The notes beneath the pieces are model-generated. The model had not been told where the DNA came from, made no database searches, and was given only the letters and a program-made list of their open reading frames with translations. A stretch of DNA of 61,910 nucleotides, filler included. It is 5 parts of 5 records of this genome, joined end to end, with 100 filler letters (N's around TTAATTAATTAA, not from the genome) between each part and the next. Parts side by side here need not be neighbours in the genome. Positions count along the whole stretch, not along the records: positions 1 to 8,444 come from DRR378314_2352; 4 more parts are not named here. One strand, written 5' to 3'. Numbering within the stretch: the stretch's first letter is position 1; every line of letters begins with the position of its first letter. Positions 1 to 41,434 of this stretch are shown here, piece after piece. The position numbers and the translations under genes were made by a program.

Positions 1-2070
1 TTCGCTGCGGCAACGCCGACCGAGGCGCGCACGCGATATTTTTGGGAAAGCATTTCCCATTTTCTTTTCTTCCCATGTAGTAGTCCCGTATGTCGCGAAT
101 TGGCAAGAAAGAAATACTCGTGTTGCAAAGTGGAGGAAACGAGCAGCTCTCGTTGCCAGCTAGCCACGCACTGGCAAAAGCGCTCTGCGCTGTCAGGGCT
201 CTTTCAGCAGATGCACGATTTCGTTGGCTGATATGGTTTGTGAGCTCTCTGGAGACCGTCATGTGGGGGGGGTGGAAAGTGTTTACAAGAAACCCTTCTC
301 GTCCGCGTGCGCTTTTCCTCCTTGTGTCGCCACAAGGCGGAACCCAGCCCAGAGTAGTCGTTGTTTTTCTTTTCTCTCTGGGGCTTCGCGGGGTACTGTT
401 TCGACTGACAGCTGCCACGCAGTACCCGCGCCAAGTGCGTTGGCGAAGAGAAGAGCAAAATCGACTCCAGCGGAATTGCTTTACGAAAATAGGAGCAAGT
501 GTGATCTTTGTCGTACCCTTGCAGCAAATTTCTAGAAGAATATCGCAAGATTTTGCCCCAACCGTTGTGCAGTGCTACCAGGTAAGGTGGCCGCTGTCCA
601 CGGTGTCACAATTGTGAGATCAATCCCTGGCGACTCCAGCGTGGGACACGTGGCGTAGTGCTCCAGCTCACCTTGCGTCTTTGACGGTGTCTTGCAGGGA
701 TTCACCGATGAAAAAACTTCATCGGTAAAATTTCATGGCTATCCGATGAATCATGTGCGTAGGGTTATTATTGGAATTGTGCTCGTAGTCGCGATTTTTT
801 TTTGTTTTGGCTCCGAGCACTCGTGCTGCAAGCTCTTGTGCCCAGCGCTGGCACTCTTGCATGACGGTCCGGCACTTAAGGGTGCTCGCAGGTTCGACGC
901 AGCTTCGTTGCCACTCGATCAAGCAGGCATCCTTTCTCCCGCTGGCTCTGGTCGCTCCTTTTATCTCGAATGTCGAATTTCAGTAGAATGTGAATAGTTG
1001 ATTCGCTGAGATTCCTGCATCGATGTGATGTTATCGTGATCTTGGGGAGTACGAGCGTTCGTCCTCTGTGTCTGCAGAAGCACCGCATGCGGCCTGCCGC
1101 ACTCAGGTAGCACGGTGTGCCGCAGTGCGCGGATCCTAGCAGCGTCGCATGCGTGTCTCTTATGTGGCAGGGCTTCCAGTAGAATCTGGATTTCCTATTT
1201 TACCACGCTTGTGCAATGTTAATCCTTTTTCTTATTCCGTACCTCTTCTGTGAAAGGAGCGATGTAGCTTTGCCTCACCTTGCGTTGTGCATTGAACCCG
1301 ATTCTTGTTGCCGGACGCCTCGGTTTCCTGCAATGTCCCGTGGCCGAGCTTGGCAGCAGAGTTACCTTTCTTGGGTTTCCATTTTCAGTTTATCCACTCG
1401 AGCCCACAGGTGGGATAGTACACCGCACAGGACCAGACTTTTGCAACGCACAATTTCCCATGTTGACTCCGCGCCGTGTTGGGGTATCACGGTACAGAGG
1501 CTTGCTCTTCTGTCCGTCCGCTTGGGACGCCAGTTGTGCTAGTTTTTTTTTTCTCGAAGTGCTCACTTGAGAAATACCTTCCTGCGCCGTCTTGGAGGTG
1601 CTCCTCTGTGGAAGGTGCTAACAAACATGCCTGCTGCTCTCTGTTGCCATCTGCCCGTGCACCCAAATTCTGGCGCTCCCTTTCTGCCACCCTTCCAGGA
1701 CTTCACAGCCATCGCCGTCGCAGCAGCGCGTCCTCGCTTGAAGAGAGAAGACAGAGCAGTGCTTCAGACTCTGTTCTACAATACGTACTGGCGTGGTGAC
1801 GTGCATTGGTTTGGCAGTTCAAGTGCGTTTTGCAGGTGATTTGTGCCGAGCAGAAGCACAGCGAGCGATTCAGGGTGCACGCAAGTAGGGTTTTGCGCAG
1901 TTTTCACCAATCTCCGTGTTCCTTTCTTAGGTAGAATTCTGCGGTCACGCAGACGGAGATCATGCAGGTGTAATTTTGGTTGCGAGTCGCCCTCTCCAGT
2001 CCCTGAGGTGATCTCCACTCAGGAAATGGGTTTCCTTGCGCTTTGTTTGTGCAGTGCACCATCGAGCATC

Positions 2071-5000
2071 ATGGGGAAGGGTAAATCCACAACCGCTGCG
2101 GCGACGCAGCTACCAGCAGTCCCCGCTGCTGGCTCTGTGAAACGTGGCAAGTACGGCGCGCTCTACGTCGAGGTGGAGCGGAAGGGTGGAAAGGGCGGGA
2201 AGCGAACCCAATATCTCTCAACAATGAGCGAAGCGAACAGGCGACTGTATTTGGAGCACGGCTTACCCCCTGCGACAGCTCTTACAATCACTGACAAGCG
2301 CCCGTTCAGCCGCAGCAGCGTAACTCTTCAAGTACGAGCTTTTGACGGGCCTGGAGGTGGATTGGTAGTAACAGATGTCGTATCTGTACACAAAAATCCA
2401 TTTCGATCTCGTGCAGAGACTCACAGAGTTACTCCTGGAACGAAGAGCAGAACAAAAGTTTCTCACAAATCGCGCAAGAACATGGGGAGCGCCTCGCGAG
2501 AAGCGCTTGTTGTTGCTGCAGACGAAGTCTTCTCTTCGATCATGAAAGGTGATGCCAAATCTATGCGCGAGTCCCTTGAAGTTGTTTGGAACAACAAGAA
2601 GAGAATTGCCAGTTCGGTTGGTCTTGCGATTGTGGAAGAAGTTTCAAACTTCGCGAAAAAGGGTACCGGGGCGGCTTTGGGAGCGGGGCTCGACCTAGCG
2701 CAGCATGCCTATGACGCCGCGTCGAGTGCGTGGCAGGGCGACACCGCCGCAGCGCGAGACTCTGGTCTCCGTGCCTTGGACAGCTCCATATCCTTGGGAG
2801 CAACGCTTCTATGTGGTGTACCTGTCAGTGTTCACCTGGTAGGCCCTGATGAAGTTTCGCGAGCGAGAGCTCCGAGCTGGCAAGCCGATGACGTGCAGTA
2901 TCTCACGGAACGCCACGCGTCGGTCGCGCTTGGGGTAAAGAGTATTGTCTCTGCAGGAATTGCCGCCCAAACGCACACAAGCACGAAAACAGATAAACAA
3001 GGACTTGCGCAAGAAATTGTCGAGACAATGGAATTCGGGGCTAATGTACAGGTCGGAGAATCTCTGGATGTGTTTGCCGGTCCTGGATATAGCACAACGA
3101 AATCCGTTGAGCGCAACATCAGCGACGAAGGAGTGGTCACTGAGCAGTCCACAGCACGTACTTCATTTTCCTTGAATATTCGCGCTCGAGTAGGAGAGTA
3201 CGAGGTGTCCGCAGATATTGCCTCGCTTGCTCCTCCGATAGCGACAGCAACGACAACAAATACGTCGCAATTTCGTGCAGACGGTCGCCCGTTGGAGGCT
3301 CCCACTACAACGCAGGAAAGCGACAGCTCGGTGCGGACGGACTGGGCGATGCAGCGCAGCTCGGAGAGCGGAAAATGCGAGACCTTTCTCAATCCTCGCA
3401 CTACAGAAACAAAAGTCGAGTACGAAAGCGGCTTCTTTGAAAGAGATCAGTCCGCATCGTGGTCCACTGCACAAGATGGAGTGTACGAGGAGAATGCTAT
3501 TCAGCGCAAAGACGTTGGGACATACACAGATGTGCGTAAACGTACATCGACAAGAACCAACCGCATCACTGGATCTCGTGCTGAAAAAGCTGCCGAATTG
3601 CCGCGCGGGCAGTGCCGAAAGTCGCACGGAACATTTACGCGCCAACACCAGAAATCTTGGGAAAAGCAGGATTCTGCAAAAGGCCGAAGGTTGTCTGCTC
3701 ACACAAGTGGGAGGAGTACAGAGAGAGAAAAGGGGAATTTTACCCATGAGCAGAACAAAGGCAAGCACGTTCGTTTTGAGGAAAGTTCTCAGTATGAGTT
3801 CAGTGCCGAGCAAAGCACACACGGTACCATCAAGAGCCAAAATGGTCGCGGCGTTGGACACTTTGCTGAAAAAGAGACTGTGGATGGAAAAGGAACAAGG
3901 ACTCGGTCCCTGCATCGCGAATCGCGCTGCGAGCCGGAAGCGCAGCGCGGAGAAACGCGAGGCGGAATTCCACCTTCTTCGCAAAAGAAGCCACGGGCGA
4001 CTGTGCACGAAGCTGAGGAAAGCTTCGTTAGTAGTGAGTACACTGAGAGTACTACAGAACGAACTGGTTTTGTAAGTCAAAGAACTGAGAGCCGACAGAA
4101 GGCGATTACCAAGCGGCGGGCGACGACGAGAAGCGGCGAAGATGTCATTGGAGCTCCTGAAGTTGGAAGCCGCACTGTCACGTCACACGCCGAGCACCTG
4201 CTGCAAAGCCGCGAAGTCCACACAGTGCGTGAAGAAGGGCTACTTGCGGTGACAATAAGTTCGACAGTATGCGAAATCGACGAACACGGGAAGACAATTT
4301 CATCGTCAACGTCCAGCGTTGAGCTGTCATCGCACTCAAGAGCTGCTGTGGACAGTGCAAAGTGGGCGCTCGCTGATGGGGCGTTGCAGTTTGCTATAAG
4401 TACTTCTGAAGGAAAGCCCTCGTTACAGCAGATTGCAGAGCAGGCAGGTATCGCTGCTGCTTCTTCAATGACAGTTTCTGTAGTTCAAGATCAACTGCAG
4501 AGCTCGCTGGGCGGCATGGCAGACAAAGCTGCGTCGGGTGCGGTGGCCTCCGCGTTTGCGCTGTTCCAAGGCAACCACAAGCAGGCGGCGCGCGCAGCCG
4601 CCGAGGCAGCAGCGTCGTGCGCAGTATCTGCAATCGTCGAGCAAGCCACAGACAACGCAGTTCCAGTGTCAGTTGGACGCCGGACATCATTTTCTCGTGG
4701 CCGTATCTCTGGATTCTCGCCAAAGATCGAATACAGCGTCGTGAAAACGGATGGCGCGAGTGTTCCGGTGCCCTGTGTTCCTGGTCTCTCGGTCGGCGCT
4801 GGGTACGAGCGCGAGGAAACCGTGTACTACAAGGACGGCCGCCGGATCTCGAAAAAGGCAGAAGGTGTGCAGAAAAATGTCCGATTTCTCTCGATATCAG
4901 CAAGTCTCTCAACGCAACATGGGAGAGAGGTTGCTGACCCGGTCCAACGGAAGGAGGGGGATCTTGTGCACGTTGACACATGGGAGCGCGAGTTTTCGGG

Positions 5001-8000
5001 TCAGCACCACTTCCGTTTCCAGGCAGGCGACCGACAGTTTATGGTCAACATCCTGCCAGCCCGTCAGAGCACGACGTACACCAGTACATTTACAAGGAAA
5101 GCCGATGGCTCACCACTGCAGTACACGCGTGATTATCAGGCACCTGTAAGTAGGCAACCAGTTGACGAGGCGTCGCCCTCGCCTGGGACTGCGGAGAATA
5201 GCGGCGCCCGGTTCAGTCCTCCCGGCGCATGCGAAGCAGTCCACTGCGTCTCCAGCGCCACTGCGGTCGCCGAGCACGTGGACCAAAAGGCTGGACGGGT
5301 TGCCAAGGATATGCTGGATACCGCTATGAACCAAGCAGGGGAAGAAACGTACGTCTGGGGACAAGAGAAGAAATCCAAGGTCACGAAAAAGCATTGGGGC
5401 ATCAGCAAGAAGAGTTCCTCTCAGATGTACGATGAAGGCACCAAGGTGAAGAGGAACACACGCCGCACCGACGCTCAGGATGGCAATTTAGTTACTTCGC
5501 GCGTAGAAGTAAATTCTGAAACGACTGCCTTTAGAGATTTACGACAAGAAGAGCACAAGAAGAGAAAGCTGGGTCGTCGGAAAACGGAGAAAAGAACATA
5601 TGCCCCTGGCGAGCGCCGGACAGACTTGGGTCTCGTGGAAAAGCGTGGTGAGATTACCGAGGTGCAAAGGAATGCGGATGAGTCTCCCCTTTCGGAACGG
5701 ACGGTGAACAAGGAATCGCCCAATGGTGCCAAGGAGACTGTGCGAACAGAATCCGACATGGAGCACATTCGCAAAACTACTACTGTGGAAAGCGTCGAAG
5801 GTGGAGAACTCTCAGCTCCAAAGGTGAACCGTTCAGAGATGCGGGTCGGGTCGTCTGTGGAAAGAGACACGTTTGACGAGGTCTCGCACACAAACTCAGC
5901 TGGAAACTTAGTTACTACTCATCGTACAACTTCACGGTATGGATCATACGTGGATAGTCGTGAAAATGAAGGCGAGTGGAAACGCAAGAATAGCTCAACG
6001 GCTCTCGAAGCATCGCACGTTGTTGAGCGCGAGACGTCGGGAGAGAAAGGGAATTCTCTTCGTTCAGAAACTGTCAAGGATCTGGAAAATGGAACACACG
6101 TTTCTGGAGACGTGCACTTTGAAGAGTATGCGCGTGACCGGACTACTGAAGTGGTTTCAACTCCCGAGGCGCCCAAGAATGGATCATCAAGTTCGAATGC
6201 CTCGAGATTGCAGCACCAAGTGAAGCGCGAAACCGTTTCACATGGAGTTTGGAGCAGCTCGCAAGAGCGCAGTCGATCAGAGAAACAGAATGTCAAATGG
6301 AGAGTGCAGGACGAAACGGGAAAGAGCAACAAAGTTCAAGTGCAGCATCAGCGTATTGAGATTGACCAGGTGGCGGGGACATATTCATCCTCCGTTGGAT
6401 CAGTAACCGGAGCATTCGAGGGTGAAACGCACGAGCAAGCGCTGGCGCGGGGAAAGGAGGTGCATATGGATGAAAGTTCTCTAGCAGAGAATCGTGAAAA
6501 TATTACCTTAAAGTGCACCTCAGAAACAAAGCGCGTTATTGACGAGTACACCGGGGAAAAAGGTGTCGCCATCAGCTCGAAAGAGCTCGATGACAGCACA
6601 AAGAGGCATTGTTATCGAGTGCAAGATATTGAAGACACGACTATTGCACGCCCGCAGAACGGTGCGGAGGCTGAAGCGTCTTCCCACGACGAGAATTCTC
6701 ATCCGAACGCGAAGAAGACAACGCGTACGCGAGTTGAACAAGGTATCGAGGTGCAGATAACGGTGAAGCAGAGTAAGACGAGTTCTGTGAGAAAAGGATT
6801 TCAAGTGCACTCTGAGACGACGCACGTTGAGGAGCATCGTGGGTACGAAATCACGAGCAAGATTGATAAAGGAGCGGGAAGCAGCGCAGCGCTGTCGGAT
6901 TCGCGTGAGACGCGCGCAGAGGCGCATATGCGAGTGCGCGTAACAAAGACTGAGAAGAACGCATTTTTCGTGAAGACTACGTCAGAGACACGCGAGTCAA
7001 CTCGCCTTGACCCTGTAACTGGGAAGGATAGTACAACAACTACAGAAACGCTACCGGATCGAAAGGGGTTTACCGACGGTACTGAGCGTGCTCTGTCTTC
7101 TGCTGCGATGGGAGCTGGCAATCTCGCAGTTCGTTGCATGGACGGCGGCGAGGTTACTGCTACTGATTTGGCAAACGTTGGTGTAGCGGCAGTAGAGTCG
7201 TACGCGCTTGGAACGACTGCGTCTGTAATCGGAGCACAATCGTCTCGTTCCGCGAGCGCTGTTGCTGTTGGTGTGGCGCTTTTCTCTTCCTTCGCTACTG
7301 GTGCAGCCCGACGGAAACTGAACAAGGAAGGACATGGAACAAATCGTCGAGACACTGCTTCATCTATGATTCAGGATGGAATCGAAAAGGTGGGTAACAT
7401 AGCAGCGAACTCTCTTGGAAGCAAACCGGTGAAGGTAGCCGGGGCAGCGGCTGTTGTGATCAGCAAGGCGTGTAGCGCATTTCGCGGTGGCCAAGATTCC
7501 TCGTCCTCTTGTGATGGAAATCTCACCGACGAGAACGGTACATCAACTTCCCATGGTGAAGAAAAGCAGAGCAATTCGCAACGTCTGGTTCATAAATTGA
7601 AAAAGTATGGGTCAGTCATTGCTGATAGTGCAGCAGCTGTGGCTCCATTGGTGCAACAGCGCTTCAAGCGTGGTCCTGGTATTGGGGTGATCACAGCTGC
7701 CATCGATGTTACGAAAGAGGTCGCTGGGGCTATTTCGGATTACAGCACAAAAGACCGTAATGGAATTCGAAAAGTTTCTGGAGAAGAAGCAGTGGAAAGA
7801 TCCGTATCTTCAGCTGTATCCATTGGGGCTACTGCGCTCTGCTGTGGGACAGTTGTAGCAGAGATGGCCAGCAGTACTGCTCTGGCTGTTGGGTGTGTAG
7901 AAGGCGGGCTGGCTGTCGCAGCGGCTGCAACAGTTCTTCCTTGGGTGATCGCTCCCATAGCCGGATACACAGCTCTTAAACTCGTCAAGTGGGGATGGAA

Positions 8001-8394
8001 AAACCTGTTCGGGGATCCAAAAGAGAAGAAAGCGAAAGAAGACCTTAATGTGCTAGTGGAGAAGTACAATATTTCGGACATTAAGAAATGCGACCTTGTC
8101 AGGTTCATGCGCAAGTATATCAGGGATAACAAAATCCATCCCGATAAAGGCGGATCGCATGAGAAGTTCCTTGCGGTGAGCGAAGATTTCGCCCGTATAC
8201 GCGAGCTTTGTGAGCTTCTCCAATATGAAAATGTTCCCAAAGCGGAGAGCTGGTGGTCTTCCTTATCTGACTTATTCCATGGAAAGTCACTTAGTGCGAG
8301 CTTTAAAAAGCTCCTGAACCGCTTCGGCTTTCGGGCAACTCAGAAATCCTCTGTCAGCGACACGAGTGGAACCGCGCTGGTTGCATGCCAGTAG
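2071..8394 (+). CDS. Giant uncharacterised protein (~2107 aa from MGKGKS; frame open from 1843) with C-terminal hydrophobic segments and a J-domain-like HPDKGG motif
   Basis: Stop-free frame of more than 6.3 kb. The ATG at 2071 follows an acceptor-like ctttgtttgtgcag (2041-2054). IHPDKGGSHEKF has its HPD at 8137-8145, preceded by the hydrophobic GGLAVAAAATVLPWVIAPIAGYTAL. The exact start is uncertain. Confidence 0.8.
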   Translation: MGKGKSTTAAATQLPAVPAAGSVKRGKYGALYVEVERKGGKGGKRTQYLSTMSEANRRLYLEHGLPPATALTITDKRPFSRSSVTLQVRAFDGPGGGLVVTDVVSVHKNPFRSRAETHRVTPGTKSRTKVSHKSRKNMGSASREALVVAADEVFSSIMKGDAKSMRESLEVVWNNKKRIASSVGLAIVEEVSNFAKKGTGAALGAGLDLAQHAYDAASSAWQGDTAAARDSGLRALDSSISLGATLLCGVPVSVHLVGPDEVSRARAPSWQADDVQYLTERHASVALGVKSIVSAGIAAQTHTSTKTDKQGLAQEIVETMEFGANVQVGESLDVFAGPGYSTTKSVERNISDEGVVTEQSTARTSFSLNIRARVGEYEVSADIASLAPPIATATTTNTSQFRADGRPLEAPTTTQESDSSVRTDWAMQRSSESGKCETFLNPRTTETKVEYESGFFERDQSASWSTAQDGVYEENAIQRKDVGTYTDVRKRTSTRTNRITGSRAEKAAELPRGQCRKSHGTFTRQHQKSWEKQDSAKGRRLSAHTSGRSTEREKGNFTHEQNKGKHVRFEESSQYEFSAEQSTHGTIKSQNGRGVGHFAEKETVDGKGTRTRSLHRESRCEPEAQRGETRGGIPPSSQKKPRATVHEAEESFVSSEYTESTTERTGFVSQRTESRQKAITKRRATTRSGEDVIGAPEVGSRTVTSHAEHLLQSREVHTVREEGLLAVTISSTVCEIDEHGKTISSSTSSVELSSHSRAAVDSAKWALADGALQFAISTSEGKPSLQQIAEQAGIAAASSMTVSVVQDQLQSSLGGMADKAASGAVASAFALFQGNHKQAARAAAEAAASCAVSAIVEQATDNAVPVSVGRRTSFSRGRISGFSPKIEYSVVKTDGASVPVPCVPGLSVGAGYEREETVYYKDGRRISKKAEGVQKNVRFLSISASLSTQHGREVADPVQRKEGDLVHVDTWEREFSGQHHFRFQAGDRQFMVNILPARQSTTYTSTFTRKADGSPLQYTRDYQAPVSRQPVDEASPSPGTAENSGARFSPPGACEAVHCVSSATAVAEHVDQKAGRVAKDMLDTAMNQAGEETYVWGQEKKSKVTKKHWGISKKSSSQMYDEGTKVKRNTRRTDAQDGNLVTSRVEVNSETTAFRDLRQEEHKKRKLGRRKTEKRTYAPGERRTDLGLVEKRGEITEVQRNADESPLSERTVNKESPNGAKETVRTESDMEHIRKTTTVESVEGGELSAPKVNRSEMRVGSSVERDTFDEVSHTNSAGNLVTTHRTTSRYGSYVDSRENEGEWKRKNSSTALEASHVVERETSGEKGNSLRSETVKDLENGTHVSGDVHFEEYARDRTTEVVSTPEAPKNGSSSSNASRLQHQVKRETVSHGVWSSSQERSRSEKQNVKWRVQDETGKSNKVQVQHQRIEIDQVAGTYSSSVGSVTGAFEGETHEQALARGKEVHMDESSLAENRENITLKCTSETKRVIDEYTGEKGVAISSKELDDSTKRHCYRVQDIEDTTIARPQNGAEAEASSHDENSHPNAKKTTRTRVEQGIEVQITVKQSKTSSVRKGFQVHSETTHVEEHRGYEITSKIDKGAGSSAALSDSRETRAEAHMRVRVTKTEKNAFFVKTTSETRESTRLDPVTGKDSTTTTETLPDRKGFTDGTERALSSAAMGAGNLAVRCMDGGEVTATDLANVGVAAVESYALGTTASVIGAQSSRSASAVAVGVALFSSFATGAARRKLNKEGHGTNRRDTASSMIQDGIEKVGNIAANSLGSKPVKVAGAAAVVISKACSAFRGGQDSSSSCDGNLTDENGTSTSHGEEKQSNSQRLVHKLKKYGSVIADSAAAVAPLVQQRFKRGPGIGVITAAIDVTKEVAGAISDYSTKDRNGIRKVSGEEAVERSVSSAVSIGATALCCGTVVAEMASSTALAVGCVEGGLAVAAAATVLPWVIAPIAGYTALKLVKWGWKNLFGDPKEKKAKEDLNVLVEKYNISDIKKCDLVRFMRKYIRDNKIHPDKGGSHEKFLAVSEDFARIRELCELLQYENVPKAESWWSSLSDLFHGKSLSASFKKLLNRFGFRATQKSSVSDTSGTALVACQ

Positions 8395-8444
8395 CGATCT
8401 AGCAGGCGTATCGATTTTTGCCAGATACAATTACGAACGGGTTC

Positions 8445-8544
8445 NNNNNNNNNNNNNNNNNNNNNNNNNNNNNNNNNNNNNNNNNNNNTTAATTAATTAA
8501 NNNNNNNNNNNNNNNNNNNNNNNNNNNNNNNNNNNNNNNNNNNN
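8445..8544. other. Artificial contig linker (N44-TTAATTAATTAA-N44)
   Basis: Six-frame stop cassette flanked by Ns, identical at four positions. Confidence 0.99.
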
Positions 8545-28762: not shown

Positions 28763-28862
28763 NNNNNNNNNNNNNNNNNNNNNNNNNNNNNNNNNNNNNN
28801 NNNNNNTTAATTAATTAANNNNNNNNNNNNNNNNNNNNNNNNNNNNNNNNNNNNNNNNNNNN
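28763..28862. other. Artificial contig linker
   Basis: N44-TTAATTAATTAA-N44. Confidence 0.99.
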
Positions 28863-28940
28863 TTCGTTCGTTCGTTCGTTCGTTCGTTCGTCCGTTCGTC
28901 CGTTCGTCCGTCCGTCCGTCCGTCCGTTCGTTCGTTCGTT
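28863..28940. repeat. Compound tetranucleotide microsatellite (TTCG)n/(TCCG)n
   Basis: Directly visible tandem units at the contig start. Confidence 0.95.
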
Positions 28941-29468
28941 TGGCACCCGAAGGATAGTGATACGCACCTCGTCGGTTGCCCCCAAGCGGCGCGCGCCGTC
29001 CAGAGCAGTCGCTGCAAGCTCTGCTACCGCTTGCATCCGTGATGCAACGTGGCCATTAGGCAAGCTCCTGTGCACACAGACCTCGATGACGACACAATGT
29101 GATACTCTGCGTGTGCAGTAGCTTGTCTGATGAACGGTATTGCGCGCGCTTGCTGCGTGCACAGTGAAGCAATAGCGCTCGCGTATTCCTTCCGTATGTT
29201 ACGGCGCGCTTTGAAAAGGATTCTGCTGCTTCTACTCGGGAGGGAATGGGACACCTTAGTGGTTGCATACCACTAGCAAAGTGCTCGCGCAAAATGAAGT
29301 ACCTGAGATAACGTCGATATACGAATATCAGCTGTATAAATATGAGCAACTGACACTGTGTTTGTTATTATTAATTTTGCTCATCCGCAACTGGTTCTTT
29401 TTGTGACTTTGCTATTTGATCGTATGCGATGCGCATTTCGCCGCACGAGGTGCTCGTAATGCCGCAGT

Positions 29469-30405
29469 CAATGCCGTCACGTTGCTCTGCTCGGTGCTCG
29501 ACTGTTGCTGGCAGAACGCACCATAGCGCTAGTAATGCATTCATTGATCCCAGAGAATAAGATGATATTCGCTGTCATTCGGTATCCCGTGCGCGCTCCC
29601 GCACGCCAGCGGCTCATATATTCGGCCTCCGCGTGTTCTTTCTCGGACATTGCTTTGCTCGATGATTTCCAGCTAACGCTATTCAAGACCAATCCGCAAC
29701 GAGCAGAGGACCCCATCGCCTTCCGGTTCTGGAACACAACTGCCCAGTCTGGGGATGATTGCATGGAGCATTTCATTGCTCCTCGTAAGTATGTGTGCTA
29801 CAAAAGCAAATACTTGAACCTGTTGATCCAAAGTGCGCGAGCATGCAAGGATGCGCATATCCTCGCACAGGTAGCCGTGAAGCTGAGGCGCGAGCGAGAT
29901 CCGTTAATGGCGGCACGTCGAACGGATTGTCTACTAGCGCTCGTCGAGGTACGTTGTGCCTCGCAGTGTGCATTGGCAGGCCCTCGTCGGCGTGAGCCAC
30001 TGCATGTACTCCGTGCGATCGCTCAGGATCTTGAGTGCAGCTGTGTCTGCCTCTCGTGCTTACAACCTGAAAGTATTTGCACTCGGCAGTCAAAAACGAT
30101 CTCACAATGTCGCTGTTCAACCGAGTCCGCGTTTGATGCGAAAACCGAAAAGCAAACAGACAAAAAAAACACAGCTTATACACGTATTGGGGCCCTCACG
30201 CGTGTGGTTACGCAACGCGTTGCCTGCGTTTTTTTTTCTTCCTTTGTTTATATGTTTTTGTTTGGCCGCTTCCAGGTGTTCAGTGTGGAGATTCGAAGCG
30301 ACGTGGTGACGGCTGGTGGTGAAATGTGCAAGACATTGATCACCTTGGGACGGGATGGGGTGCCCCTGCGACACGTAGAAAGCCATGCAGAAGACGTACT
30401 TGCGG
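29469..30405 (+). CDS. Possible spliced eukaryotic gene of unknown product (exon fragments only)
   Basis: Acceptor/donor-bounded open blocks (cctc|gtaagt ~29785; cacag|gtagcc...cgag|gtacgt ~29870-29948; ttccag|gtgttc...gcg|gtacga ~30275-30403); no recognisable motif; boundaries approximate. Confidence 0.3.
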
Positions 30406-31229
30406 TACGAAACAATGTGCGAGCCCATAGTGCGCCTTCCGCGCAGTGTATCTCACTTGAAGCGGCGGGCATAATGCGACGCGTGCATTGTGGTCCTCGC
30501 ACCTCCGCTGCGTGCAAGTCGCAGCCGCTTCCCGAGTGGCGTGCCCTGCAAACACATCACTGTATCACGCGCAATCCCCATCCCCTCGCTTTATCCATGC
30601 GTATCTGTGCTTCACATACCCAGTGTGTACATGCTTATCGCCATCGGTTGCGCTGTCCTGCGGTGCTCGCTGGCCGTGCAGGACATTGCTACGCGCGCGC
30701 CGCGCCTACAAGCGCAGGTAGCCGAAGCGCGGCGAGCACTTGCGGGGCACCTGGCGAACGCCGCTGGGACGCCACGTAGCAGCGCCCAAACACACGCATT
30801 GCCGAGACGCGTGCGGCTTCGCTTGTCTGCATTGACGCCCGAGGGAGAGAATACGCGCCCATGATGTCGCTTTTGCAACGAACCGAATCGGTAGCCACTC
30901 TCCTTCCTTCCGGTAGGGCGCCGTTGTGTCGATAGGCTGCAGCCTGGCCGGCGCTCTGCGTAGCGCGGTGCGCATGTGTCGCACGGCACTCGGCCTGCCT
31001 TGTGCAGATTGATTCCATGGTGCTTTAGTACGGTACGTGTGGTACAGGCAAGATAATAATAAACTATGCTCCCCTAAACCTGCTGAGCAGCGACGAGTGC
31101 CGTGCTCCTCGGTCCGTGCCGCGGCGTCCTGGCCCGAGATTCTGCAGTCATCGCAATGCAGAACACTATTGGTTTCACGCCTGCGCGAGAACCATACATT
31201 GCATATCCTTACGCGATATAAGCGTGGAC

Positions 31230-34200
31230 TTAGTTTGGCCGCGCTTCGAACGCTGCCACCTCCTGCATCGCGTGGCTGCATAGAGCCAGGACGCGGAAAG
31301 ACCGCCCGAGATTGTCAGGCCCATCGCCCGTGAGCCGCTCACACCCCGATCGAATCCGGGCACGCTGCTCCTCGCGGTCCGCCGCGGCAATAAGCGCGTC
31401 CCGTCGAACGTCGATCCCTGTACAGCAAGAAACAATCACGTAACGAAAGGAGAAACATACCAATCTCCGTCAGGCTTGCAGACCATTGGCTTATGCAACG
31501 ACTGTCTTTCGCTTTTCTGATATGTGTGCACGCGGCCAATGCTCGCGAAGCACTACCGGAGCGCTTACGGTACCAAACGTACTGCATTTTCGCGCGATCG
31601 CTTAAAAAAACGTACAACCCTGATACTGAAACCACCCTACGGGACTCTGTGCACACCGATATGCAAATATAAATGCTGCACTGACGTTGCGTGGAGTCGT
31701 TTTACAAAGAAATCGGCGCCTTGTGCGAGCAAATCGAGTCGTTGTCGCGCAATCAAGACATTGCGGTGGAACGGAGGGTCCCAAACGTACCCATGCGCTG
31801 GAGAAACGCTCGCTGGTCAAGAAGCTCCGGTACCCACACCGAATCGCGGACACCAAGCGCAGCACCGCGCAGCGCAGCGAAATCCACATGTGCACTAATA
31901 TCCGACGTCCCCACTTCGCGTAACAGAGGAGCAGGTGCGTGTCGCCGAATCGCCCGGACGGAGTCTTCGGCAGGTCCGTCTGCGACCACGACAGCGCCCC
32001 CCCCCCCCCAAAAAAAAAAAGAATTTAAATAAACAAAACGCGAGACATCAGAAAACACGCCAAACCGTGGCACCGTTCGCCATACTCTTTGTAAACATGC
32101 AACCGGGCAAACCGTCGCGATGCTATGGCATTTGCTGAAGCGAGGACACTTGACGCAAACGCAGCAAGCGTGTGAGTCGCAAAACAGAAGCGTTCGCATA
32201 CGAGGACACTCCCCGACAAAAGGACGGAATTCGTATCGCTGCCACCCGACCGTGCGCTACTACAAGACACAGGGCACGGCTCCTTTCTCCGCCCTTCCCT
32301 CCTGCGCACTCTGTTGCAGACACAGGAAGCCACCGCATATTCACCTGATTCGCGATTCAACAAAATTTGACTGGAACAGTAAATACAGCTCAAACAGTCA
32401 TAACAAATCGCTTCCATGGCGCGCTGCTGGCAGCAGCGACAACTTCGGCGTACCTTTGCCGTAGTCAATCACTAGACCGGCGCCGCCATGCTGGCCAACC
32501 CTGCGCGCAATGGTCTCCATCAATCCCCTTGGAGAAGACAGATGGGCCAGAGCAAGCAGTAGGAGCAAACTGAGACAGATAACAAAATCACGGAGTTTCA
32601 AAGCAACACGCGCGACACGCAATAAAGTGCCGCATGCCGTGGCTCAGTGCATAGATAGGAGAAACAGACTCGCGCACGTGCAGGCAGGGCCAGGCACGGA
32701 GCTTATCCGAACGGAATGCGTGAACGACGCACCATGACGACGGTGATATTTCGACCATGGCACCGATTTTCTCCGGAAGTGCTCCGCCAGGATATGCAGA
32801 CAGTAGTGCGCTTGCCGGTGTCGCAGAAGGGGCTCGCACAAACGCAAGCTCGCCGCCTTGCGCAGCAATTAGCGTCTCCTCCCATACTGTGCGCCCACGC
32901 GTGAAATGGTGGACTGGGAGGGCATCAAACAGCTCCTAAAGGTTGCGCAGCAAGGACAAACAGTGCACGTGATATTGCGTCGGCAAGTATAATCGAACAA
33001 ACTCCCACAAAGGGTCAACGCCAACTACTTTCACGGCTATGATGATCAGTGGCAGCGGCAGTACCGTGCACTGGCGCCGAAATAGACGCGCCCGATGCGC
33101 ACAGTGAGAGCACGCGCACACAAGCACATGGGGGAGCCCATTTCCCGTTTTGGTTCGCGCCGCTGATACATGTGTCGTAGCGAAGAAAGCTCCCCATATG
33201 CCCTCACCTGCGCCACAAAAAATGTCGGTGCAGAAGGCACATCGTCAAACCGCTCATGCCATGTAACGGTTGCCTTTCTACCGGATCGTAATACAAGATC
33301 CAATGTTGGCTTGCTGGCCCCTTCTGCGCCTGATCCTGTCGACAGCGTGTCACCGCGACCTGTGGCACGGCTTGCCGCCGGCGTGGCGTGCTGCAACAGT
33401 GTCCTCCGCTGAATCTCGCGCAGTGCAGGGCTCGTTTCCACAAGATCGACACGCAATTCGCTCTCTGCAGTATCAGCAACCTACAGTATACATGGAGTCC
33501 AGGATACGCCCAGTAGATGTCAAGGTAGATTCGCGTGGCGCGCCGGGTGGAAGGCCGCCGGCTCCCAAGTCCTCAAAGCTCCGACGTCTCTTGAAGCGCG
33601 TGAACGCGCCTGCTCGCTGAGCACGATTTCAGGAAAGGTTCATCTGAACAACACACGTACATAAGCGTACACACACTCACTCGAATAACGAAGACGCGTT
33701 CCCAGGAATAGCGATCGCAAGTCACGTGGCCTGCGACGCACCTGGTCCAATACGCGCAGCACATCTGCAATCAGCGTACCGCGCCCAGGCCCGATTTCTA
33801 CAAACCGCGCGTCCCGAGGGGAGTCGATTGAGAGCCACGAATGGGCCAGCCAGACTCCCACCAGCTCACCAAACACCTGCAAAATCAAATCATATACCAA
33901 TGCAAAAAGAAAAAATGCAGGGGTTACCGAGCAGAAAAAAGAGGGGGTGGCAGATGCATCGGCAACGCATACACATCCGGATTCGACGCTATCGGGCACA
34001 CTGCACACACCAAGCGAAACATGAGCGCTACGATATATTCCAACAACACGTACACAGATAGGGGCAACGCACGCGCACTATCACTCAACATTTCAGACCA
34101 AGTGCCGCTGGGGATGTACTCACAAAGCTTTGGAAACTGCAGCATTACTACTACGCATATCGCTGGGTTGTACCTCGTCCTAGCAGAGCAACAGCAGCCC

Positions 34201-35050
34201 GCAAACGCCTCGCTATTGAAGCCAACAAAGCGCACCTGGCTGATCTCCGGCGAAGTTACAAAGTCACCCGCACTTCCTGCGCACAGCGTGCGCAAAGAAA
34301 ACCAACAAAGTGAACACCTGCCCTGCACACAGTGCAAGTAAGCCAAAGTGTACACCATCTGCCCTCCGCGCGCGCTAGGTCGAAAGGCGGGAGCACACGT
34401 CAGGACGCAAACATGCAGAGCAGGTGCGGAAAGCAAGCAAAAGCGCGTAGAGCGCCGCGGCAGCTCCCTTCTTTACGCACCGAACACATCCCGCTGCATG
34501 TAATACCCGTGCTCTGGATGCTGGAGCGCCATATTCATAAATTCTGCCATCGAAAGCGGTCCCCGGAAGTTGGCGCGCTCCACCAAAATCGCGTCCAGCG
34601 GACTCGACGCTTTGTCGACAGACAAAGTGCGCATTATCGAACAGTACCAAGGCAAAAAACATAAGACGACTTTGTGATTCGGAACTCACTCGTGTAGCCT
34701 TGACGCTCTCGTGCAAAAAAAAAACTACTGGTCGGTTAATGGAATCGAAAGTGCGGGAAAACAAAGCGAAACTGCAGCGAAAACGCGCACGCAACGAGAA
34801 CCTGCACCACGCTGCCACTACCAGCGCGCTTGCCGTCTGGCGCGTGCAACACACCTCGGCTCGAGCTGCTGGACGGCTCGCTGTCGCGAGCAAGCTCGGG
34901 CCCACGGCGAAGCCCAGAGCGGTCAACGGACACGATTGTTGACGACCGCCGCGATCGGACAAGCTGACGATAGAGTAGAGGCGAGTTTCGCGAGCTACCG
35001 AGCAGATAGCGGGCGCCCATTCGAAGCGAGTGCGGCCTTCGCGCGAGCAT
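31230..35050 (-). CDS. NDUFAF7: Mitochondrial arginine methyltransferase NDUFAF7/MidA, multi-exon
   Basis: Exons in order: Arg-rich presequence + VSVDRSGL; GPLSMAEFMNMALQHPEHGYY; GDFVTSPEISQ; VFGELVGVW...VEIGPGRGTL; LVETSPALREIQ; ELFDALPVH; LVIDYG; GTSDISAHVDF; GIDVR...LGRSFRVL*; junctions checked are GT-AG. Confidence 0.93.
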
Positions 35051-35809
35051 GACTGCTGCACAGCAAACGCGAGGAACTGCGCTCAGCCGAAACGCGCACG
35101 CATAAGCACCATATCAACACACGATACAATAGAATTCAAGATATACGAACCAACGAACAACAGCAACGAAGATAAATTGCATAACATACGATGGATTCTT
35201 CCCAAACTTACGTTCGAGGCTTCACCGCTTTCGCGAACAGAAACGACCGACGACCCGCGCGCCCAAGACGCAAGCGGCGATAGCAAGGAGGTCAACGCGC
35301 AGCGCGGCAGCATACGAGCACAGCTGAAGAACGCGCTAACGAAAAAAAAGCGACAAGTGGGACCAGTCGCGGTTACAATGGGTAACCGTGCAACATTGTT
35401 AATACGCCCATGAAACACTTGTATCATGTCGCGAGTAAGGCCGCCGGTGTTTCTGGCACACGCAGCAAGAGCGCCGCGCGCGTCGTACCTGACCGCCAAT
35501 CCGATACTGCGCAAGGCTGACGGCACCGAGCACCGTGCACTCCATCACGAAGGCGCCTGGAAGTCGGGTTGGCAGAAAAAGAACCCCGAAACGCTAGCAA
35601 CATTCTTTCCTCACCCCCAGAATCCCAACCGAGGATGTTGACCTACCGCAGCGTTGCCCGCGGCGCGCTGCTCGACACTCTGCCCCCGGACGGAGCGAAT
35701 ATACTCGGCGAGAAGGGAGCGCGCGTGTGCGCGCAAGCAGGCCGGAGACAGTCGGCCCTTGGGCTTGACCGCGCAGGCGCCGGCCCGCCTGCTCCGTGCC
35801 TTTGCCAGC

Positions 35810-37095
35810 ATGTCACACCAGAGCTCGCGCCGTCTTTTGAACGAATTTCGTGAAGCGTCTCGCAGTACGGACGACAACGACATTCGGCTTGCTCCGGATG
35901 GGTGCGTTTTTGGTTATCCCTTCGTGCTGGTGCTCCAAGCTCGCCATGGCGCCCCCTCTGCCGCTTCGGCGCAACCCTGTTGCCCATGCTGACGTGCGCG
36001 CACTCTGTACGTTTGCTCCGGATGACACGCTCGCAACTGCCTGCATGCAGAGATAACTTCTATAGCTGGTCTGCGGAATTGCAAGGTATGTTAACTGCAA
36101 TAGATTTGGGAATATGCTTTCCGCAAGCCAGCAAAGTGCTTGCCGCAACGTGGTGGCGCTCGGCGCTTCTCCACGCCGTGCTTGGCGCTGGCTGTTCACG
36201 CGCTCTTTCGTACCGCACACACACGACAGCGGTGGCCCCCTGGCACGGGCGCGCTGCGCGCCCCGCCGCCCCACCAGCCGTGGACCGGGTGCGCGGCCTA
36301 CGCTATTGACCGGCGATTCTTATGATGATTACCCGAGGCATTTGTCTGCATGGGACCTTCACACCCATCTGCTGATAACAACAGATCTATGGATCTCTGA
36401 GGAATCGCCACTTGCCAGAGCCGCGCACTTTTGTCAGCTCGCGCGAGCGTAACAAAAGCTCCCTCGAGGAGCGTGCGCCAACACGTGCTCGCGCTTACCC
36501 GGAGGCCTTTCGCGACGGTCCCGTTGCTGCTTGCGCTTTCAATCGCGTGTGGCAGGTCCTCCGGACTCTCCATACCAAGGTGGCCAGTTCAGGATCGCAA
36601 TCACAGTTCCACCGGAGTACCCGAACGTTCCTCCCTCTGTGCGCTTCGTCACGAAATGCTTTCACCCGAACATTCATTTCGAGGTACGCCCGAGAGACGC
36701 GCACGCCGCCGTCCGCACGCCGCTTCGCACAGCTTGGCCCCCTTTTGTGTTTGCGCTCTCCCCCGCACCTGCGCAGGCGCCGCACAGGGACTTGCTTGGT
36801 TTCGTCCAGAAGCGTATCGAAAGAAATCGCATGCGATAAAAATCTTTGTGACGCCGCTCCGCGTGCCGATCCGCAGAACGGCGAGGTCTGCCTAGACATT
36901 CTCAAGACAACGTGGACCCCGGCGTGGACTTTAATGAGCGTGTGCCGTGCAGTCATTGCCTTACTGTCCTCGCCAGAGGCCGACTCGCCGCTCAACTGCG
37001 ATGCGGGGAACTTACTTCGCTCGGGCGATGAGCGAGGATTTCGCTCCATGGCCAAAATGTATACTGACTTGCACGCACAGAGCGCGGCTTCCTAG
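35810..37095 (+). CDS. PEX4: Peroxisomal ubiquitin-conjugating enzyme PEX4-like E2, about 4 exons
   Basis: SSRRLLNEF; GPPDSPYQGG...FHPNIHF; GEVCLDILKTTWTPAWTL...PEADSPLNCDAGNLLRSGD..GFRSMA, the C-terminal signature of PEX4/UBC21. Confidence 0.88.
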
Positions 37096-37388
37096 CGAAC
37101 GCGTAGGCTCCGCCTCGGGCGTTTGTACGCTGTGTGGTGTTACACGTGCGGATCGCGCAGAGGTCTCGGGGTAGACTTTGCTCTGCTCTTGTTGTACGCT
37201 TCCGAAGAGGCTGAAGCTGGGAAGCCCCAGTGAAACTCGTGCGGCTGAATTCTTTCGTTTCGCAATTGTACCAATGTATTTCTATATGCACCAATAAAGA
37301 GCACCTGTCCTGCTGCTCGCCCTTTTTTTTTTTTCTCGGCGCGTCACTACTGCCCGAGACGAAACCATGCCTCGCAATCAATATCAAG

Positions 37389-40300
37389 TCAAGCAACGAT
37401 CCAAAAGAGCCGCATCGTGCCGTCTGCAGCTCCAGTAGCAAGTGCGTCAAGTTCGACTGTTGCAGCCATGGCCAGAATGGTTGCCGCGTGTGCGAGCACC
37501 TTGTGCTTCGGCTGGAGCTTCGGCAGCTGCGTCTGTCGCCGTCTGGACCATGCGCAGAGATCGCAGTGGCTCAACGACAGGTGGGCGACTATTGCAACAA
37601 TGCGCGCAATCATTCCAAGCGCTCGCCCCATACGCATGCATTTCCACTACACCGCACGAACATACCGAACCGAATGGTATGGATGCAGGGCGTATACACG
37701 GATGCGACCGTCGAATCCGCCTGCGTGGCAAAGTAATAGGCAGGCAAACACAAGAACCGCCTCAGTCGTGGCCGGAGTCGAACAAGAGCTCGGGGCAGTC
37801 GAAATGCAGTTGCATTACCATCCCAAGAGGTACGTACGCTCACAAAGGTGCACACGACATTATGCACAAGCGAAAAGACGCACTCTCCTTGTCTGTACCC
37901 TATGTATCGCCAACATGAGCCTCACGAAATGTCCATGTAAAGCATTGCCACCTTGGAAAAAGCTTCCGGGTGCGCAGTACAGGCACCCTGCCTGTCCGTC
38001 GAATGGCGTATGACAGACGATGACCACACCGCTTGTCTCGAAATCCTAGTTGGGCAGCAAACATAGGGCATGCCACGCACCAGAAATGCGTTGCTATAGC
38101 AAACGTGTGCCACAAAGTGGGCGAAGTCGTGCGCGTACCAGTGATCAGGGTATCAGCAGCGGGCACCTCGAGCGCGCACTGCGCCATTTCGGATGCCGCT
38201 GCTAAAATCGGCGAAACACGCTGATCGAGGAGCACAGCAGCTCCAAGAGGTCGAAACGCCGCCCGAGCAGTAGCACCGTCAGCTGGGTATGCATCGGCGG
38301 CCGAAACAGTAGTATTACTGTCAGTAGTTTACCCGCACACACAAAAAATGCACCCCAGTCGTGTAGAAACATTGACCATGCCCAAATCTGCTCCCACAAG
38401 GCAAAAGCCCGCCGAAATGCAAAACAGCCACGGTCCTCAAGCAGCACGATGATGTGATCACAGAGCGAGAAATCTTTGCAAAATGAATTTCGACTCGTCA
38501 GGAACGCACTACGGCGCATCGAACGAGAGAGTGGGATGGCTTTGCATGCATTTGTTGGCACCATCTCCACGCAAACGCCTTCCGCATCGGGAAATCGCAT
38601 GTCGCCCCCAGTGTACGCTAACAGATCCACGGCCTTCTATGCCACGGTGGCAGCAACAAAGCTGATGAGCGGCATTGACGATGGGGTGACGCTGACGGCG
38701 GGGCATGCTTCCTTGGCGCTCGGCGATGCCGTTCGCCGTGAAGCAAAGGTGCGTAGGCACGGTACGATAGCAACTACTGAAGAGTCTTCCCTCACACTAT
38801 TTCTGTAATATATCAATACAGGGAGTACGAGAGCATTGGTAAAAGGCACTCGCGAGTTGCTAGATCTTGTATGCGAGAAATGAAAACGTGAAAGAAAAAG
38901 GGAGGTTTCTTAAACAAAAAAAAAAAAAAAAAAAACAACGTGGGCGGTCTTGCACAAACGCGGTTCTCTGGCTCAACGACAAACGCAAGCGCTGAAAGAC
39001 ACGTACGAAGACGCTGCGTATTGGAAGGAGATCCGCAGGGTACATTCCATAGCAGTGCTTTGCTGACTCCCCGCAGTAGTACCGTCGTCCCCAGAGGAAG
39101 CATCTCCAGAATTCCGCCAAGCTGTGCACACTGCAAGACATTCACAGCAGTATACATATGCTGTAGCCGTCCTTCATCAAAGTCTACCGTATACGCAAGC
39201 ACGCAGTCATCCTGAAAAATGAAGTCGGGAAAAGTAAACACGAGTGCATCGCCGATACTGATATCAGTACATGCTAGCTACATGTTATGACTAAACTTTT
39301 CGCGCAACCTTCACGGGAGGCGATTGCGGTATAAAATTCGTGTGCAGGAACAAAACATAGCTGCTCGGCCTTTGACCTTCGCGGCGCAACTCGCTGGGCG
39401 CGCACCGCACAGAGTCAGTAAGCTCTCTGTGAATCGACGGAATATCGGAGAAGGGAACTCGGAACGCACCGAGGTTGTAATAACCAACCATACAGCGCCG
39501 TTGATTCGTAAGAGTGCTAACCGCGTAGCTGTGCGAGCACCAATCGAAACCGTCTTCCACGGCTGCACAGACGCCTGGCGTAGGCACTGCGCGCCACGAA
39601 TTCGCCAGAGCACGACACGCGGCGCCCCGGCAGCGCCTGCAACAAGATATGCATCTTCCCGTATCACCGCGACCGCCTGTGCAGGGCCAGTGAGACCATC
39701 AAGCGAGACTGCGCGCAAAGGACCTGCATTGTGTGCACAGGTTGCAGCGCACGCCGAGAGTATAAGGACGCCCCGGCGCACCGCTTATGGCGTCCAGCAA
39801 AATTTCTCTGTAAGCGACGTGGAGCCTGCCACCTGCGTGGCGCCCGGCGATCCACACCCCACGAGGTTGCACTTCCACGGCATGCAACCATGGGCATACC
39901 GGATCGGAGCTGCGAATATATGGTCTGGCACCCTTCCCAGGCACAGTGCCAGCGACGCAAGCGACCGAGCAAGGCACGGCAGTCCTGCAGCACGCGCAAC
40001 ACCGAGCAGGAGCCGGTAACGCACGTGAACAAGTCAGCCCAACACGCGGCGCGACACGTCAGCTTGCTCACGCGCGACCCGAATTCTCGACAGGTTCATT
40101 CAGCCGCAGATCCGTGGAAATTTGTATTGGGTTTGTGCATTCGTGTTATCCGTACCTCAGTTGGCCGGAGGAGAATCTCGTCAGGCTGCAGGCCGCTGTG
40201 CAGCGTGGCATATGCGAGCGCCAGCGGGCGCCAGTGCCGCGGCTGGCCTGCAAGGCGCCGGAGGCGCCGGCACGCTGTGAATCGCAAAACCGCATACTGG

Positions 40301-40539
40301 TGTTAGATAGATCAACGTTCGTGTACACTTAGCGCAGAAAGTGACGGCCTTGACATATTTCCAGTAGATTGGTGGTACAAGCGGGGACACGCAGCGATTG
40401 CGCGGCCACGGTGGCAGGGACGAAATCGCAGGCACGCAACGCAGCACTTACCTGACGAGCACGCAGCAAGCGCTTCTGCCGAGCACTTCGAGAGGATATC
40501 GTCAAGCACTTCGTCGGGCAAATCAAGGAGCGAAAGCAT
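37389..40539 (-). CDS. F-box protein with divergent WD40-like repeats, multi-exon
   Basis: N-terminal LLDLPDEVLDDILS F-box followed by a GTAAGT donor; internal YLVAGAAGAPRVVLWRI; last exon AHAATILAM...LATGAADGTMRLF; joining these into one gene is inferred. Confidence 0.55.
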
Positions 40540-41434
40540 GCATGCTACACACGAACGCGAGCTTTATCAGAAAGAATCACAGGGTGGCCCTCCGGAGGGC
40601 GGAAAACACGCGGGCGAATGCAGTCTGCGCGGCGCGCAGCGGAAGCGTTCCGGCGGCTCGCCGAAGAGCGCAGCACAGGCCGACCGCGCCCAGGCTTGCG
40701 AGGATGCAGCGAGAGATTCGCGGCGGCTCGAGGATCCCTGCTTCCTTGTTTCGCGCAGCGGCTGCTCGTGGACTCTCTCTGCCAATTGGGCCTCGCCATC
40801 CTTGGCCTGCATCTGAGCACTACCCGCAGAAAGGAGCAGAAGAAACATACGCATCACGCATACAAACTCATCGGACGTCGCGAACAGAGTCGCATGTTTG
40901 CTAAGCAACAGCCCTCGAGGATGAAACGACTATATCACCGCGGTAGCGCTTGGCAAGACCGGGAAGTGGCTGCCGAGAGCGCACGAGCGCGAGCGCTGTG
41001 CCTGCGCACAAAGCACGCAAACGCTCGGCTCTATTGGCGCAGCCCGTACACCTCAAACTCAAGACGAATCCGATATGTGCCAGATTACAGCACTCATGCT
41101 GACAGTCGAATGATGCTGCGGACCGGGGCCGATACGGCCCGGACGACGATGCCGCACAACCAGACGGTGAAGCCGCCAGCAAGCCGCAAAAGACACACCT
41201 ATTGCGCGGAGAGTTGGCACGGGGCCGCCGCTGAGCGATTCGCCGTAGATTGCGCGCGCGAGGCACAAGTCTCCGCGTGCCCTTCACCAATGGAAAAGTA
41301 GAACACCTTTCGGTGTGTATGGTTTTCTTCCCTGCACGCACATCTCCACGCGCGCGTCCGCCTCGTATGAAAGAGTACCAAATTTGACGTGCTTCCTTTC
41401 CCAACGCGGAGCGGGGCCGGGCGCGTAGAAAACA

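Follow-up and report, generated by a model that had tools for sequence, protein, structure and literature searches.

The DNA analysed here is a stretch of 61,910 nucleotides (hereafter, the window), in which five unrelated contigs are joined by identical 100-nucleotide artificial spacers (N44-TTAATTAATTAA-N44), and the subject of this report is the sole gene on the first of them, contig 1 (positions 1-8444, GC content 0.529), which encodes a giant protein of 2107 amino acids ending in a hydrophobic helical pair and a J domain. Contig 1 is nuclear DNA of a microbial eukaryote, and the gene has its whole coding sequence in one 6.3-kb exon, preceded by two spliced introns within the 5' untranslated region (UTR). 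An open frame of 2183 codons extends over 1843-8394 on the plus strand; given the base composition of contig 1, the chance probability of such a frame is approximately 5e-45, and the longest competing frame within the region has 305 codons. The coding sequence itself occupies 2071-8394 (plus strand; 2107 codons and a TAG), wholly inside exon 3 (2055 to beyond 8444), and thus coincides in coordinates and length with the frame of about 2100 residues that had been proposed in a first-pass annotation made from the sequence alone. The ATG at 2071 is the first in-frame ATG after an in-frame TGA, 42 nucleotides upstream in the spliced mRNA. Another ATG, at approximately 2026, is not a start codon, because it lies inside intron 2.

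The exon structure was read from contigs of a public sequencing run (X1), in which all of the sampled words of the gene are present; in a second run with the same species label (X2), next to none of the words were found. A 6518-nucleotide X1 contig with a depth of 95.4 spans 1695-1822 and then 2055-8444, thereby covering exon 2 of the 5'UTR (1699-1822, plus strand) and defining intron 2 (GTGCGT...GTGCAG; 1823-2054, plus strand, 232 nucleotides) as a GT..AG joint from 1822 to 2055 with 128 nucleotides on its shorter side. A 55-nucleotide X1 contig links 577 to 1695 across intron 1 (GTAAGG...TTCCAG; 582-1698, plus strand), a GT..AG joint that skips 1117 nucleotides; this joint, which was reported as 577>1695 with a cut of +4, is read as 581>1699, with the GT at 582-583. 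Exon 1 of the 5'UTR (318-581, plus strand) is covered by X1 contigs on 318-582 and 553-577, and its 5' limit is just the first base that the X1 contigs cover. An unspliced X1 contig (553-1724) has a depth of 8.2, and no base differences were seen between the X1 contigs and contig 1. Since GT..AG introns have been removed in the X1 contigs, the gene is a transcribed eukaryotic nuclear gene; transcription had been named beforehand as a check on the annotation, and the gene is indeed both transcribed and spliced in these contigs. The splicing of intron 2, which joins 1821-1822 to 2055-2056, also creates an upstream ATG across the exon junction, and this opens a 28-codon frame that is out of frame with, and overlaps, the main start. 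At the other end of the gene, two short X1 contigs overlap the last 30 bases of contig 1 (8415-8444), one of them continuing past the end and the other diverging with 27 unlike bases, and so the 3'UTR extends beyond contig 1 and the assembly graph has a branch point here.

The residue composition of the giant protein includes S 11.5 %, A 10.2 %, T 8.5 %, V 8.4 %, E 8.3 %, G 7.9 %, R 7.4 % and K 6.5 %, and it has polar blocks whose mean hydropathy is as low as -1.66. The polar S/T/E/K/R sequence, the Ala/Gly/Val-rich hydrophobic end, and WKNLFGDPKE and IHPDKGGSHEKF at the C-terminal end are all present as annotated. Scans against Pfam returned no family at E<=0.1 for the whole protein and nothing under E 0.1 for pieces of it, in agreement with the annotated absence of an enzyme motif; the accompanying claim that there is no signal peptide is a matter of hydropathy, by which no hydrophobic N-terminus is seen.

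An exhaustive phmmer search against 1.84 billion cluster representatives, using residues 984-2183 of the open frame (residues 908-2107 when counted from the ATG at 2071), recovered 21 relatives at E<=1e-3, eight at <=1e-10 and two at <=1e-30, and thus the protein is not the orphan that it was taken to be. The closest relative (P0002) has 1277 residues, 32 % identity and an E-value of 8.6e-78, and most full-length relatives have 1800-2050 residues. Those with a named source are the 'J domain-containing protein' Cvel_715 of Chromera velia (UniRef100_A0A0G4GQL7; 1784 residues), proteins of Chlorarachnion reptans (1982), Helgoeca nana (2051), Salpingoeca urceolata (1906), Pedospumella encystans and P. 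elongata (1842 and 1835), and a fragment from Paulinella micropora, the remainder being unnamed metagenome or Logan proteins. With E-values of 1.3e-33 to 3.1e-4 and identities of 26-32 %, the Chromera, Helgoeca, Chlorarachnion, Salpingoeca and Pedospumella proteins share with the giant protein a core module, a second beta patch, a polar region, Ala/Gly helices, the hydrophobic pair and the J domain, and those of Helgoeca and Chlorarachnion also share its N-terminal 400 residues. All five are uncharacterised, and in their sources they are named 'J domain-containing' or not at all. A collinear alignment with 23 invariant columns is formed by eight long members, seven of them full-length and the eighth, P0002, shorter at the N-terminus, and the giant protein displays the whole of the family signature, from the core module (TWER.FSGQ / GDRQ / LPAW.S / R.DG.PL) through the second beta patch, the Ala/Gly helices and the hydrophobic pair to the C-terminal J domain.

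The family spans at least four eukaryotic supergroups, with a patchy spread over alveolates, rhizarians, stramenopiles and choanoflagellates. In a FastTree phylogeny of the eight members, which is unrooted and carries long-branch and composition warnings, the giant protein pairs with P0002, and both this pair and the grouping (Chromera, (Helgoeca, Chlorarachnion)) stand apart from an enzyme-headed trio. The two choanoflagellate proteins fall into different groups of the tree, which points to old paralogy or gene transfer. No relatives were returned by word-indexed protein searches with residues 1900-2183, residues 78-1000 or a profile of the core (A4), blanks that reflect the index only, since relatives do exist; nor were viral relatives seen in a one-pattern viral scan or among the predicted viral structures of BFVD. 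No published description of the family was found in the literature covered, which excluded subscription journals. By sequence, the giant protein is a member of a so far unnamed and apparently undescribed family of eukaryotic J-domain proteins of class C (type III) and giant size.

The J domain is encoded at 8017-8277 (plus strand) and comprises four predicted helices, with the HPD motif at 8137-8145 (residues 2023-2025). The motif is invariant in 8/8 and 14/14 alignment rows; the domain is otherwise divergent, with a two-residue insertion ahead of the HPD. Among the relatives scanned, Pfam DnaJ was found at E<=0.01 in 11/16, two of which passed the gathering score (28.0 and 28.1 vs 27.8 bits). 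A profile of 14 aligned C-termini, with the giant protein included (A2), matched 60 distinct PDB sequences at an E-value of 0.1 or below. The matches listed are without exception J-domain proteins, with Sis1 as the best (2.2e-8) and with DNAJA1 (5e-7), Escherichia coli DnaJ (1e-5), Sec63 (9e-3) and Tim14 (0.09) among the others, as well as the T-antigen entries 1faf_A (6.6e-4), 1gh6_A (0.027) and 2pf4_E (0.071). When a hidden Markov model (HMM) of the family J region was built without the giant protein, the J region of the latter scored 69.7 bits against it. AlphaFold2 (AF2), run on the A2 alignment, gave four J-region helices with predicted local distance difference test (pLDDT) values of 89-97 and placed the HPD in the loop between helices II and III (model residues 151-161 and 172-191), and Tim14 superposes on this model with a root-mean-square deviation of 2.3 A over 58/71 residues at 22 % identity. 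As a lead only, the nearest cluster to the C-terminus in the ESM Atlas carries DnaJ at a score of 0.81. By transitive profile homology, then, the C-terminus is established as a genuine J domain, as the first-pass annotation had it.

Next to the J domain, the annotation had placed a hydrophobic hairpin, and a conserved hydrophobic helical pair does precede it (7780-8010, plus strand; residues 1904-1941 and 1947-1980, from AF2 and hydropathy). In the giant protein, the hydrophobic 19-residue segments lie at nucleotides ~7804-7960 and have Kyte-Doolittle (KD) values of 1.72 and 1.79-1.93; in 8/8 full-length members, the maximum 19-residue KD of the pair is 1.79-2.11. The most hydrophobic segment (KD >=1.73) is found 45-85 residues before the HPD in 13/14 rows, and the J domain starts 10-15 residues after the pair. 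The second helix contains a conserved P..AP, usually inside the most hydrophobic 19 residues. Elsewhere, KD values of >=1.6 occur only twice, in a segment of the N-terminal module and in a segment of the C-terminal Ala/Gly helices.

The remaining body of the protein had been described as non-globular, a description that does not hold for residues 730-1230, where AF2 (13 family rows; mean pLDDT 79.1, predicted template modelling score 0.63) gave folded helical and long-stranded beta domains with pLDDT values of 75-98. In this model, an Ala/Gly-rich bundle of three helices (model residues 25-131) is followed by ten long strands (138-293; pLDDT 84-98) and, beyond a disordered linker, by a helix with hairpins whose strands reach 27 residues (361-500; pLDDT ~90); all of these parts fall under the tool's caution line for helical bundles. 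In the gene, all on the plus strand, these parts correspond to a core helical bundle (4330-4650; residues 754-860; Ala/Gly/Ser 49 %, maximum 19-residue KD 1.07), a core beta domain of ten long strands (4669-5136; residues 867-1022), where the best-conserved family motifs are located (TWEREFSGQ, GDRQ, LPA.xS and RKADGSPL), and a second conserved beta patch (5287-5757; residues 1073-1229; pLDDT ~87-96), in which a helix is followed by the hairpins (strands <=27 residues) and a terminal RNADESPL. Next comes a polar T/E/R/K/S-rich region (5758-7050; residues 1230-1660; mean KD -1.07, Asp/Glu/Lys/Arg 31 %) that aligns along the family and, because of its composition and the hairpins just before it, probably continues as a solvent-exposed beta meander. 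The C-terminal Ala/Gly-rich helical region (7051-7779; maximum 19-residue KD 1.62) begins with a conserved LS.G..RG and showed no similarity to the core helices (best E 0.35). Within this region, two relatives carry a PDZ insert (P0002, residues 779-837; P0005, residues 108-164) with matches of E 3e-5 to 8e-4 that lie slightly below the Pfam gathering scores; the giant protein is without it.

Near the N-terminus, a module of Ala/Gly helices, a GVPVSV motif, a beta region and a terminal FRADGRPL (2473-3390, plus strand; residues 135-440) is a diverged duplicate of the core module, and it is common to the Helgoeca and Chlorarachnion proteins (P0006 and P0023). The two modules align over 208 collinear columns with an hhalign score of 41.8 (E 3.3e-5), 20 column-shuffled controls scoring <=17.2, and each beta module ends in [RK]x[AD]DGxP[LF] (residues 404, 1012 and 1203). 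Self-BLAST showed no internal repeat, so that the duplication is visible only in the hhalign profiles. As a separate observation, residues 8-26 of the Chlorarachnion relative gave a faint Pfam match (E 0.065) to PBCV_basic_adap, the PBCV-specific basic adaptor domain of chloroviruses. Its motif (G.KGG.Y...G.K.YL) occurs also at the N-terminus of the Helgoeca protein and of the giant protein (window positions ~2131-2250), whose own sequence gave no match to that family.

No characterised family with the architecture of the giant protein was found in Pfam or in the literature covered, as the first-pass annotation had also concluded. The protein resembles a membrane-tethered class-C J-protein, with a geometry like that of Pam18 and a size like that of sacsin or RME-8, without belonging to those families. 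As in Pam18/Tim14, and likewise DNAJC15/19, the J domain comes directly after a membrane segment, a putative one in the giant protein, which also has the HPDKGGS motif of Pam18. However, Pam18 is a small mitochondrial protein of ~170 residues with one transmembrane helix, and Pam18/Tim14 has no giant body (the chain in 2guz has 71 residues vs 2107 in the giant protein). Furthermore, the family has no common presequence, and its profile is far nearer to Sis1 and DNAJA1 (2e-8 to 5e-7) than to Tim14 (E 0.09), which places it outside the Tim14 type. Sacsin and RME-8/DNAJC13 are likewise of very large size, each recruiting Hsp70 to an extensive scaffold through one J domain, but no sequence similarity to the giant protein was seen, both being absent among the 21 relatives, and they have no Pfam domains in common with it; to our knowledge, neither of them has a hydrophobic hairpin beside a C-terminal J domain. 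Polyomavirus T antigens have HPDKGG in common with the giant protein and provide the only PDB J-domain match of the protein alone; however, their matches are much weaker than those of cellular DnaJ and Sis1, and no other T-antigen region is shared.

On balance, and with somewhat more confidence than an even chance would warrant, the giant protein is best regarded as a hairpin-anchored J-protein of class C that would bring cytosolic Hsp70 to a scaffold at a membrane, and as a new architecture of a known kind. In the mechanism envisaged, the helical pair would enter a cellular membrane from the cytosol and lie in it as a hairpin, so that the huge body and the J domain would be together on the cytosolic face. 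From its place at the membrane surface, the J domain would dock cytosolic Hsp70 and trigger its ATPase, and Hsp70 may then act on clients bound to the body or on the body itself, so as to assemble, disassemble or remodel a beta-rich scaffold bound to the membrane. The N-terminal end would be the exchangeable working end of the family, occupied by a second core module here and by a class-3 lipase or a pre-toxin-TG/HNH-like domain in paralogues. The cytosolic side is supported by the lack of a hydrophobic N-terminus and by the PDZ inserts in P0002 and P0005, and, since there is no N-terminal signal-like segment, the simplest reading is a hairpin that leaves body and J domain on the same side.

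A number of points weigh against the anchored J-protein. Taken alone, the giant protein has no Pfam DnaJ match even at E<=10, short of the gathering score of 27.8 bits, and its best PDB hit, the J domain of SV40 large T (1gh6_A), has an E-value of 0.73; because its own sequence fails with both, the J assignment is transitive. The hairpin helices are poorly modelled (AF2 helices 46-83 and 89-122 of a 249-residue piece; pLDDT 41-82), the first of them is weaker than the second in most rows (KD 1.06-1.81), and a single pass that would separate the body from the J domain across the membrane is also compatible with the data. The AF2 body model covers residues 730-1230, and the structure given above for residues 1230-1660 was deduced and not computed. 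The RNA label of run X1 is a guess, and X1 is the sole run with the gene.

The leading alternative, to which we give perhaps a minor share of the probability, is that the family consists of conflict or effector proteins of the polymorphic-toxin type, the constant body serving as a delivery or membrane-insertion device that would present swappable N-terminal heads (lipase, nuclease and others) to a target membrane or cell, with Hsp70 recruited to unfold, translocate or assemble the protein. It draws on the heads of the relatives, which vary while the body is conserved. The Salpingoeca protein P0007 has an N-terminal Lipase_3 domain at 25.6 bits (gathering score 22), which P0020 and P0051 carry weakly, the Pedospumella lipase match being the weaker too; P0008 and P0027 begin with Pfam PT-TG at 33.7 bits (gathering score 23.5), followed by a faint HNH match (E 0.13); and Chromera has something else. 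The gene tree departs from the species tree, as the separate placement of the choanoflagellate proteins illustrates, and structural comparison of the two core domains gave membrane proteins as the best matches, with TIM22/TIM23 chains and OmpA-type barrels. However, no PT-TG and no enzymatic head was recognised by Pfam in the giant protein, whether whole or in pieces, and the rest of its subgroup (P0002, Chromera, Helgoeca and Chlorarachnion) is likewise without a recognisable enzymatic head. Bacterial polymorphic toxins carry their variable toxin at the C-terminal end, with PT-TG ahead of it, whereas the variable part of this family is N-terminal. Hydropathy reveals no signal-like segment at the N-terminus, and across the family the core helices (maximum 19-residue KD 0.92-1.32) and the polar core beta domain (mean KD -0.3 to -0.7) are too polar for classical membrane spans, which makes membrane insertion of the module doubtful. 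As regards the toxin, immune or extrusome-type protein that the first-pass annotation raised as a possibility, two relatives of subfamily B carry a pre-toxin-TG/HNH-like or lipase head, and the giant protein carries none.

An extension of this alternative, bolder and improbable in our estimate, would make the family a self-contained eukaryotic device for membrane insertion or translocation. Its repeated modules, each a Tim17-like bundle with an OmpA-like barrel, would switch from soluble to membrane-embedded, the J domain in cis would harness cytosolic Hsp70 as a motor or unfoldase, and the heads (lipase, PT-TG/HNH nuclease or duplicated module) would be payloads, the whole being a protist counterpart of polymorphic toxin/effector systems that was spread patchily by gene transfer. 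The Tim- and OmpA-like resemblance of the core has no sequence support, whether from profile A4 against PDB (best E 1.2) or from Pfam on pieces, and neither the Pfam Tim17 signature nor the four hydrophobic transmembrane helices of the Tim17/Tim22/Tim23 (PRAT) family were found. Additionally, Foldseek against PDB gave nothing at E<=1e-3 for either AF2 model, and the ESM Atlas had no usable match for the core.

It is about as doubtful that the protein is a membrane tether or handles bulk lipid, with the C-terminal hairpin in one membrane, the long, beta-rich body reaching across to a lipid droplet or a second membrane, and attachment under the control of the J domain. The top, non-significant Foldseek matches of the core are two beta-sheet proteins that carry lipid, microsomal triglyceride transfer protein (E 3e-3) and vitellogenin (3.4e-3), lipase heads occur in paralogues, and the prolines of P..AP recall the monotopic hairpins of lipid-droplet proteins. 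However, the TM-scores of those matches are <=0.14, none reaches E<=1e-3, and neither Chorein_N nor any other lipid-transfer family was matched in Pfam. The beta regions, moreover, are among the most polar parts of the protein (mean KD -0.3 to -1.07, Asp/Glu/Lys/Arg up to 33 %) and, as such, fit a hydrophobic lipid groove poorly.

That the gene is bacterial, encoding an effector secreted by the alphaproteobacterium to which the seemingly adjacent recJ, glpX and hom belong, has that apparent adjacency in the window and nothing else in its favour, and it is refuted on these data, to the point of deserving practically no credence, by the artificial 100-nucleotide spacer, the removal of two spliceosomal-type introns and the eukaryotic origin of all named relatives, along with the lack of a match in the nearest compared bacterial genome (G001) or in 61 related ones, the failure to confirm any of 31 core-pattern matches in a prokaryote genome collection, and the difference in GC content between contig 1 (0.529) and contig 2 (0.594).

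J-domain proteins set where and on what Hsp70 works, and with nearly every new architecture among them a further task for Hsp70 has been indicated. The family described here unites a J domain at a putative membrane anchor with a 1,900-residue, mostly beta body, exchangeable enzymatic heads and a patchy distribution. As a defined, conserved and expressed target, it raises the question of what Hsp70 does at that membrane, as well as whether protists possess giant, highly polar, beta-rich and possibly rod-like proteins, and whether there are modular effector scaffolds that belong to eukaryotes themselves.

The rest of the window bears on how the locus should be read. The spacer at 8445-8544 (no strand), which is not biology, bounds the locus, and further copies of it lie at 28763-28862, 44208-44307 and 56547-56646; because of these spacers, RecJ and GlpX are not neighbours of the giant gene, and neighbourhood arguments across them are void. 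The GC contents of contigs 1-5 are 0.529, 0.594, 0.561, 0.574 and 0.627, respectively. Contig 2 (8545-28762) is bacterial, with recJ, glpX, hom, phaC and secDF, and has merely 64-70 % identity to G001, whereas contig 4 (44308-56546), which codes for parts of tripartite ATP-independent periplasmic (TRAP) and ATP-binding cassette (ABC) transporters, is 99 % identical over all 12,239 bases to G001:C1:584361-596598. This disparity means that the assembly combines DNA of at least two bacteria with that of one eukaryote. The practical lesson is that, where eukaryotic and bacterial contigs are glued into one window, gene-neighbourhood reasoning over the spacers misleads.

No tRNA genes were called and no Rfam families were found in the window. 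The first 36 bases of contig 2 (8545-8580), beside recJ, are 92-94 % identical in 5/5 searched genomes of the genus and, by eye, resemble the 5' half of a tRNA gene on the minus strand, cut by the contig end and without an ARAGORN call. Contig 3 (28863-44207) is eukaryotic and contains a ubiquitin-conjugating-enzyme gene split over two frames (UQ_con profile positions 26-76 and 75-139), the halves of which are separated by an intron between ~36677 and 36865. It has few long open frames, its A>T skew is strong, one of its ends (28863-28940) is a simple repeat, (TTCG/TCCG)n, and an ankyrin-repeat frame is located at 43469-44206 on the minus strand.

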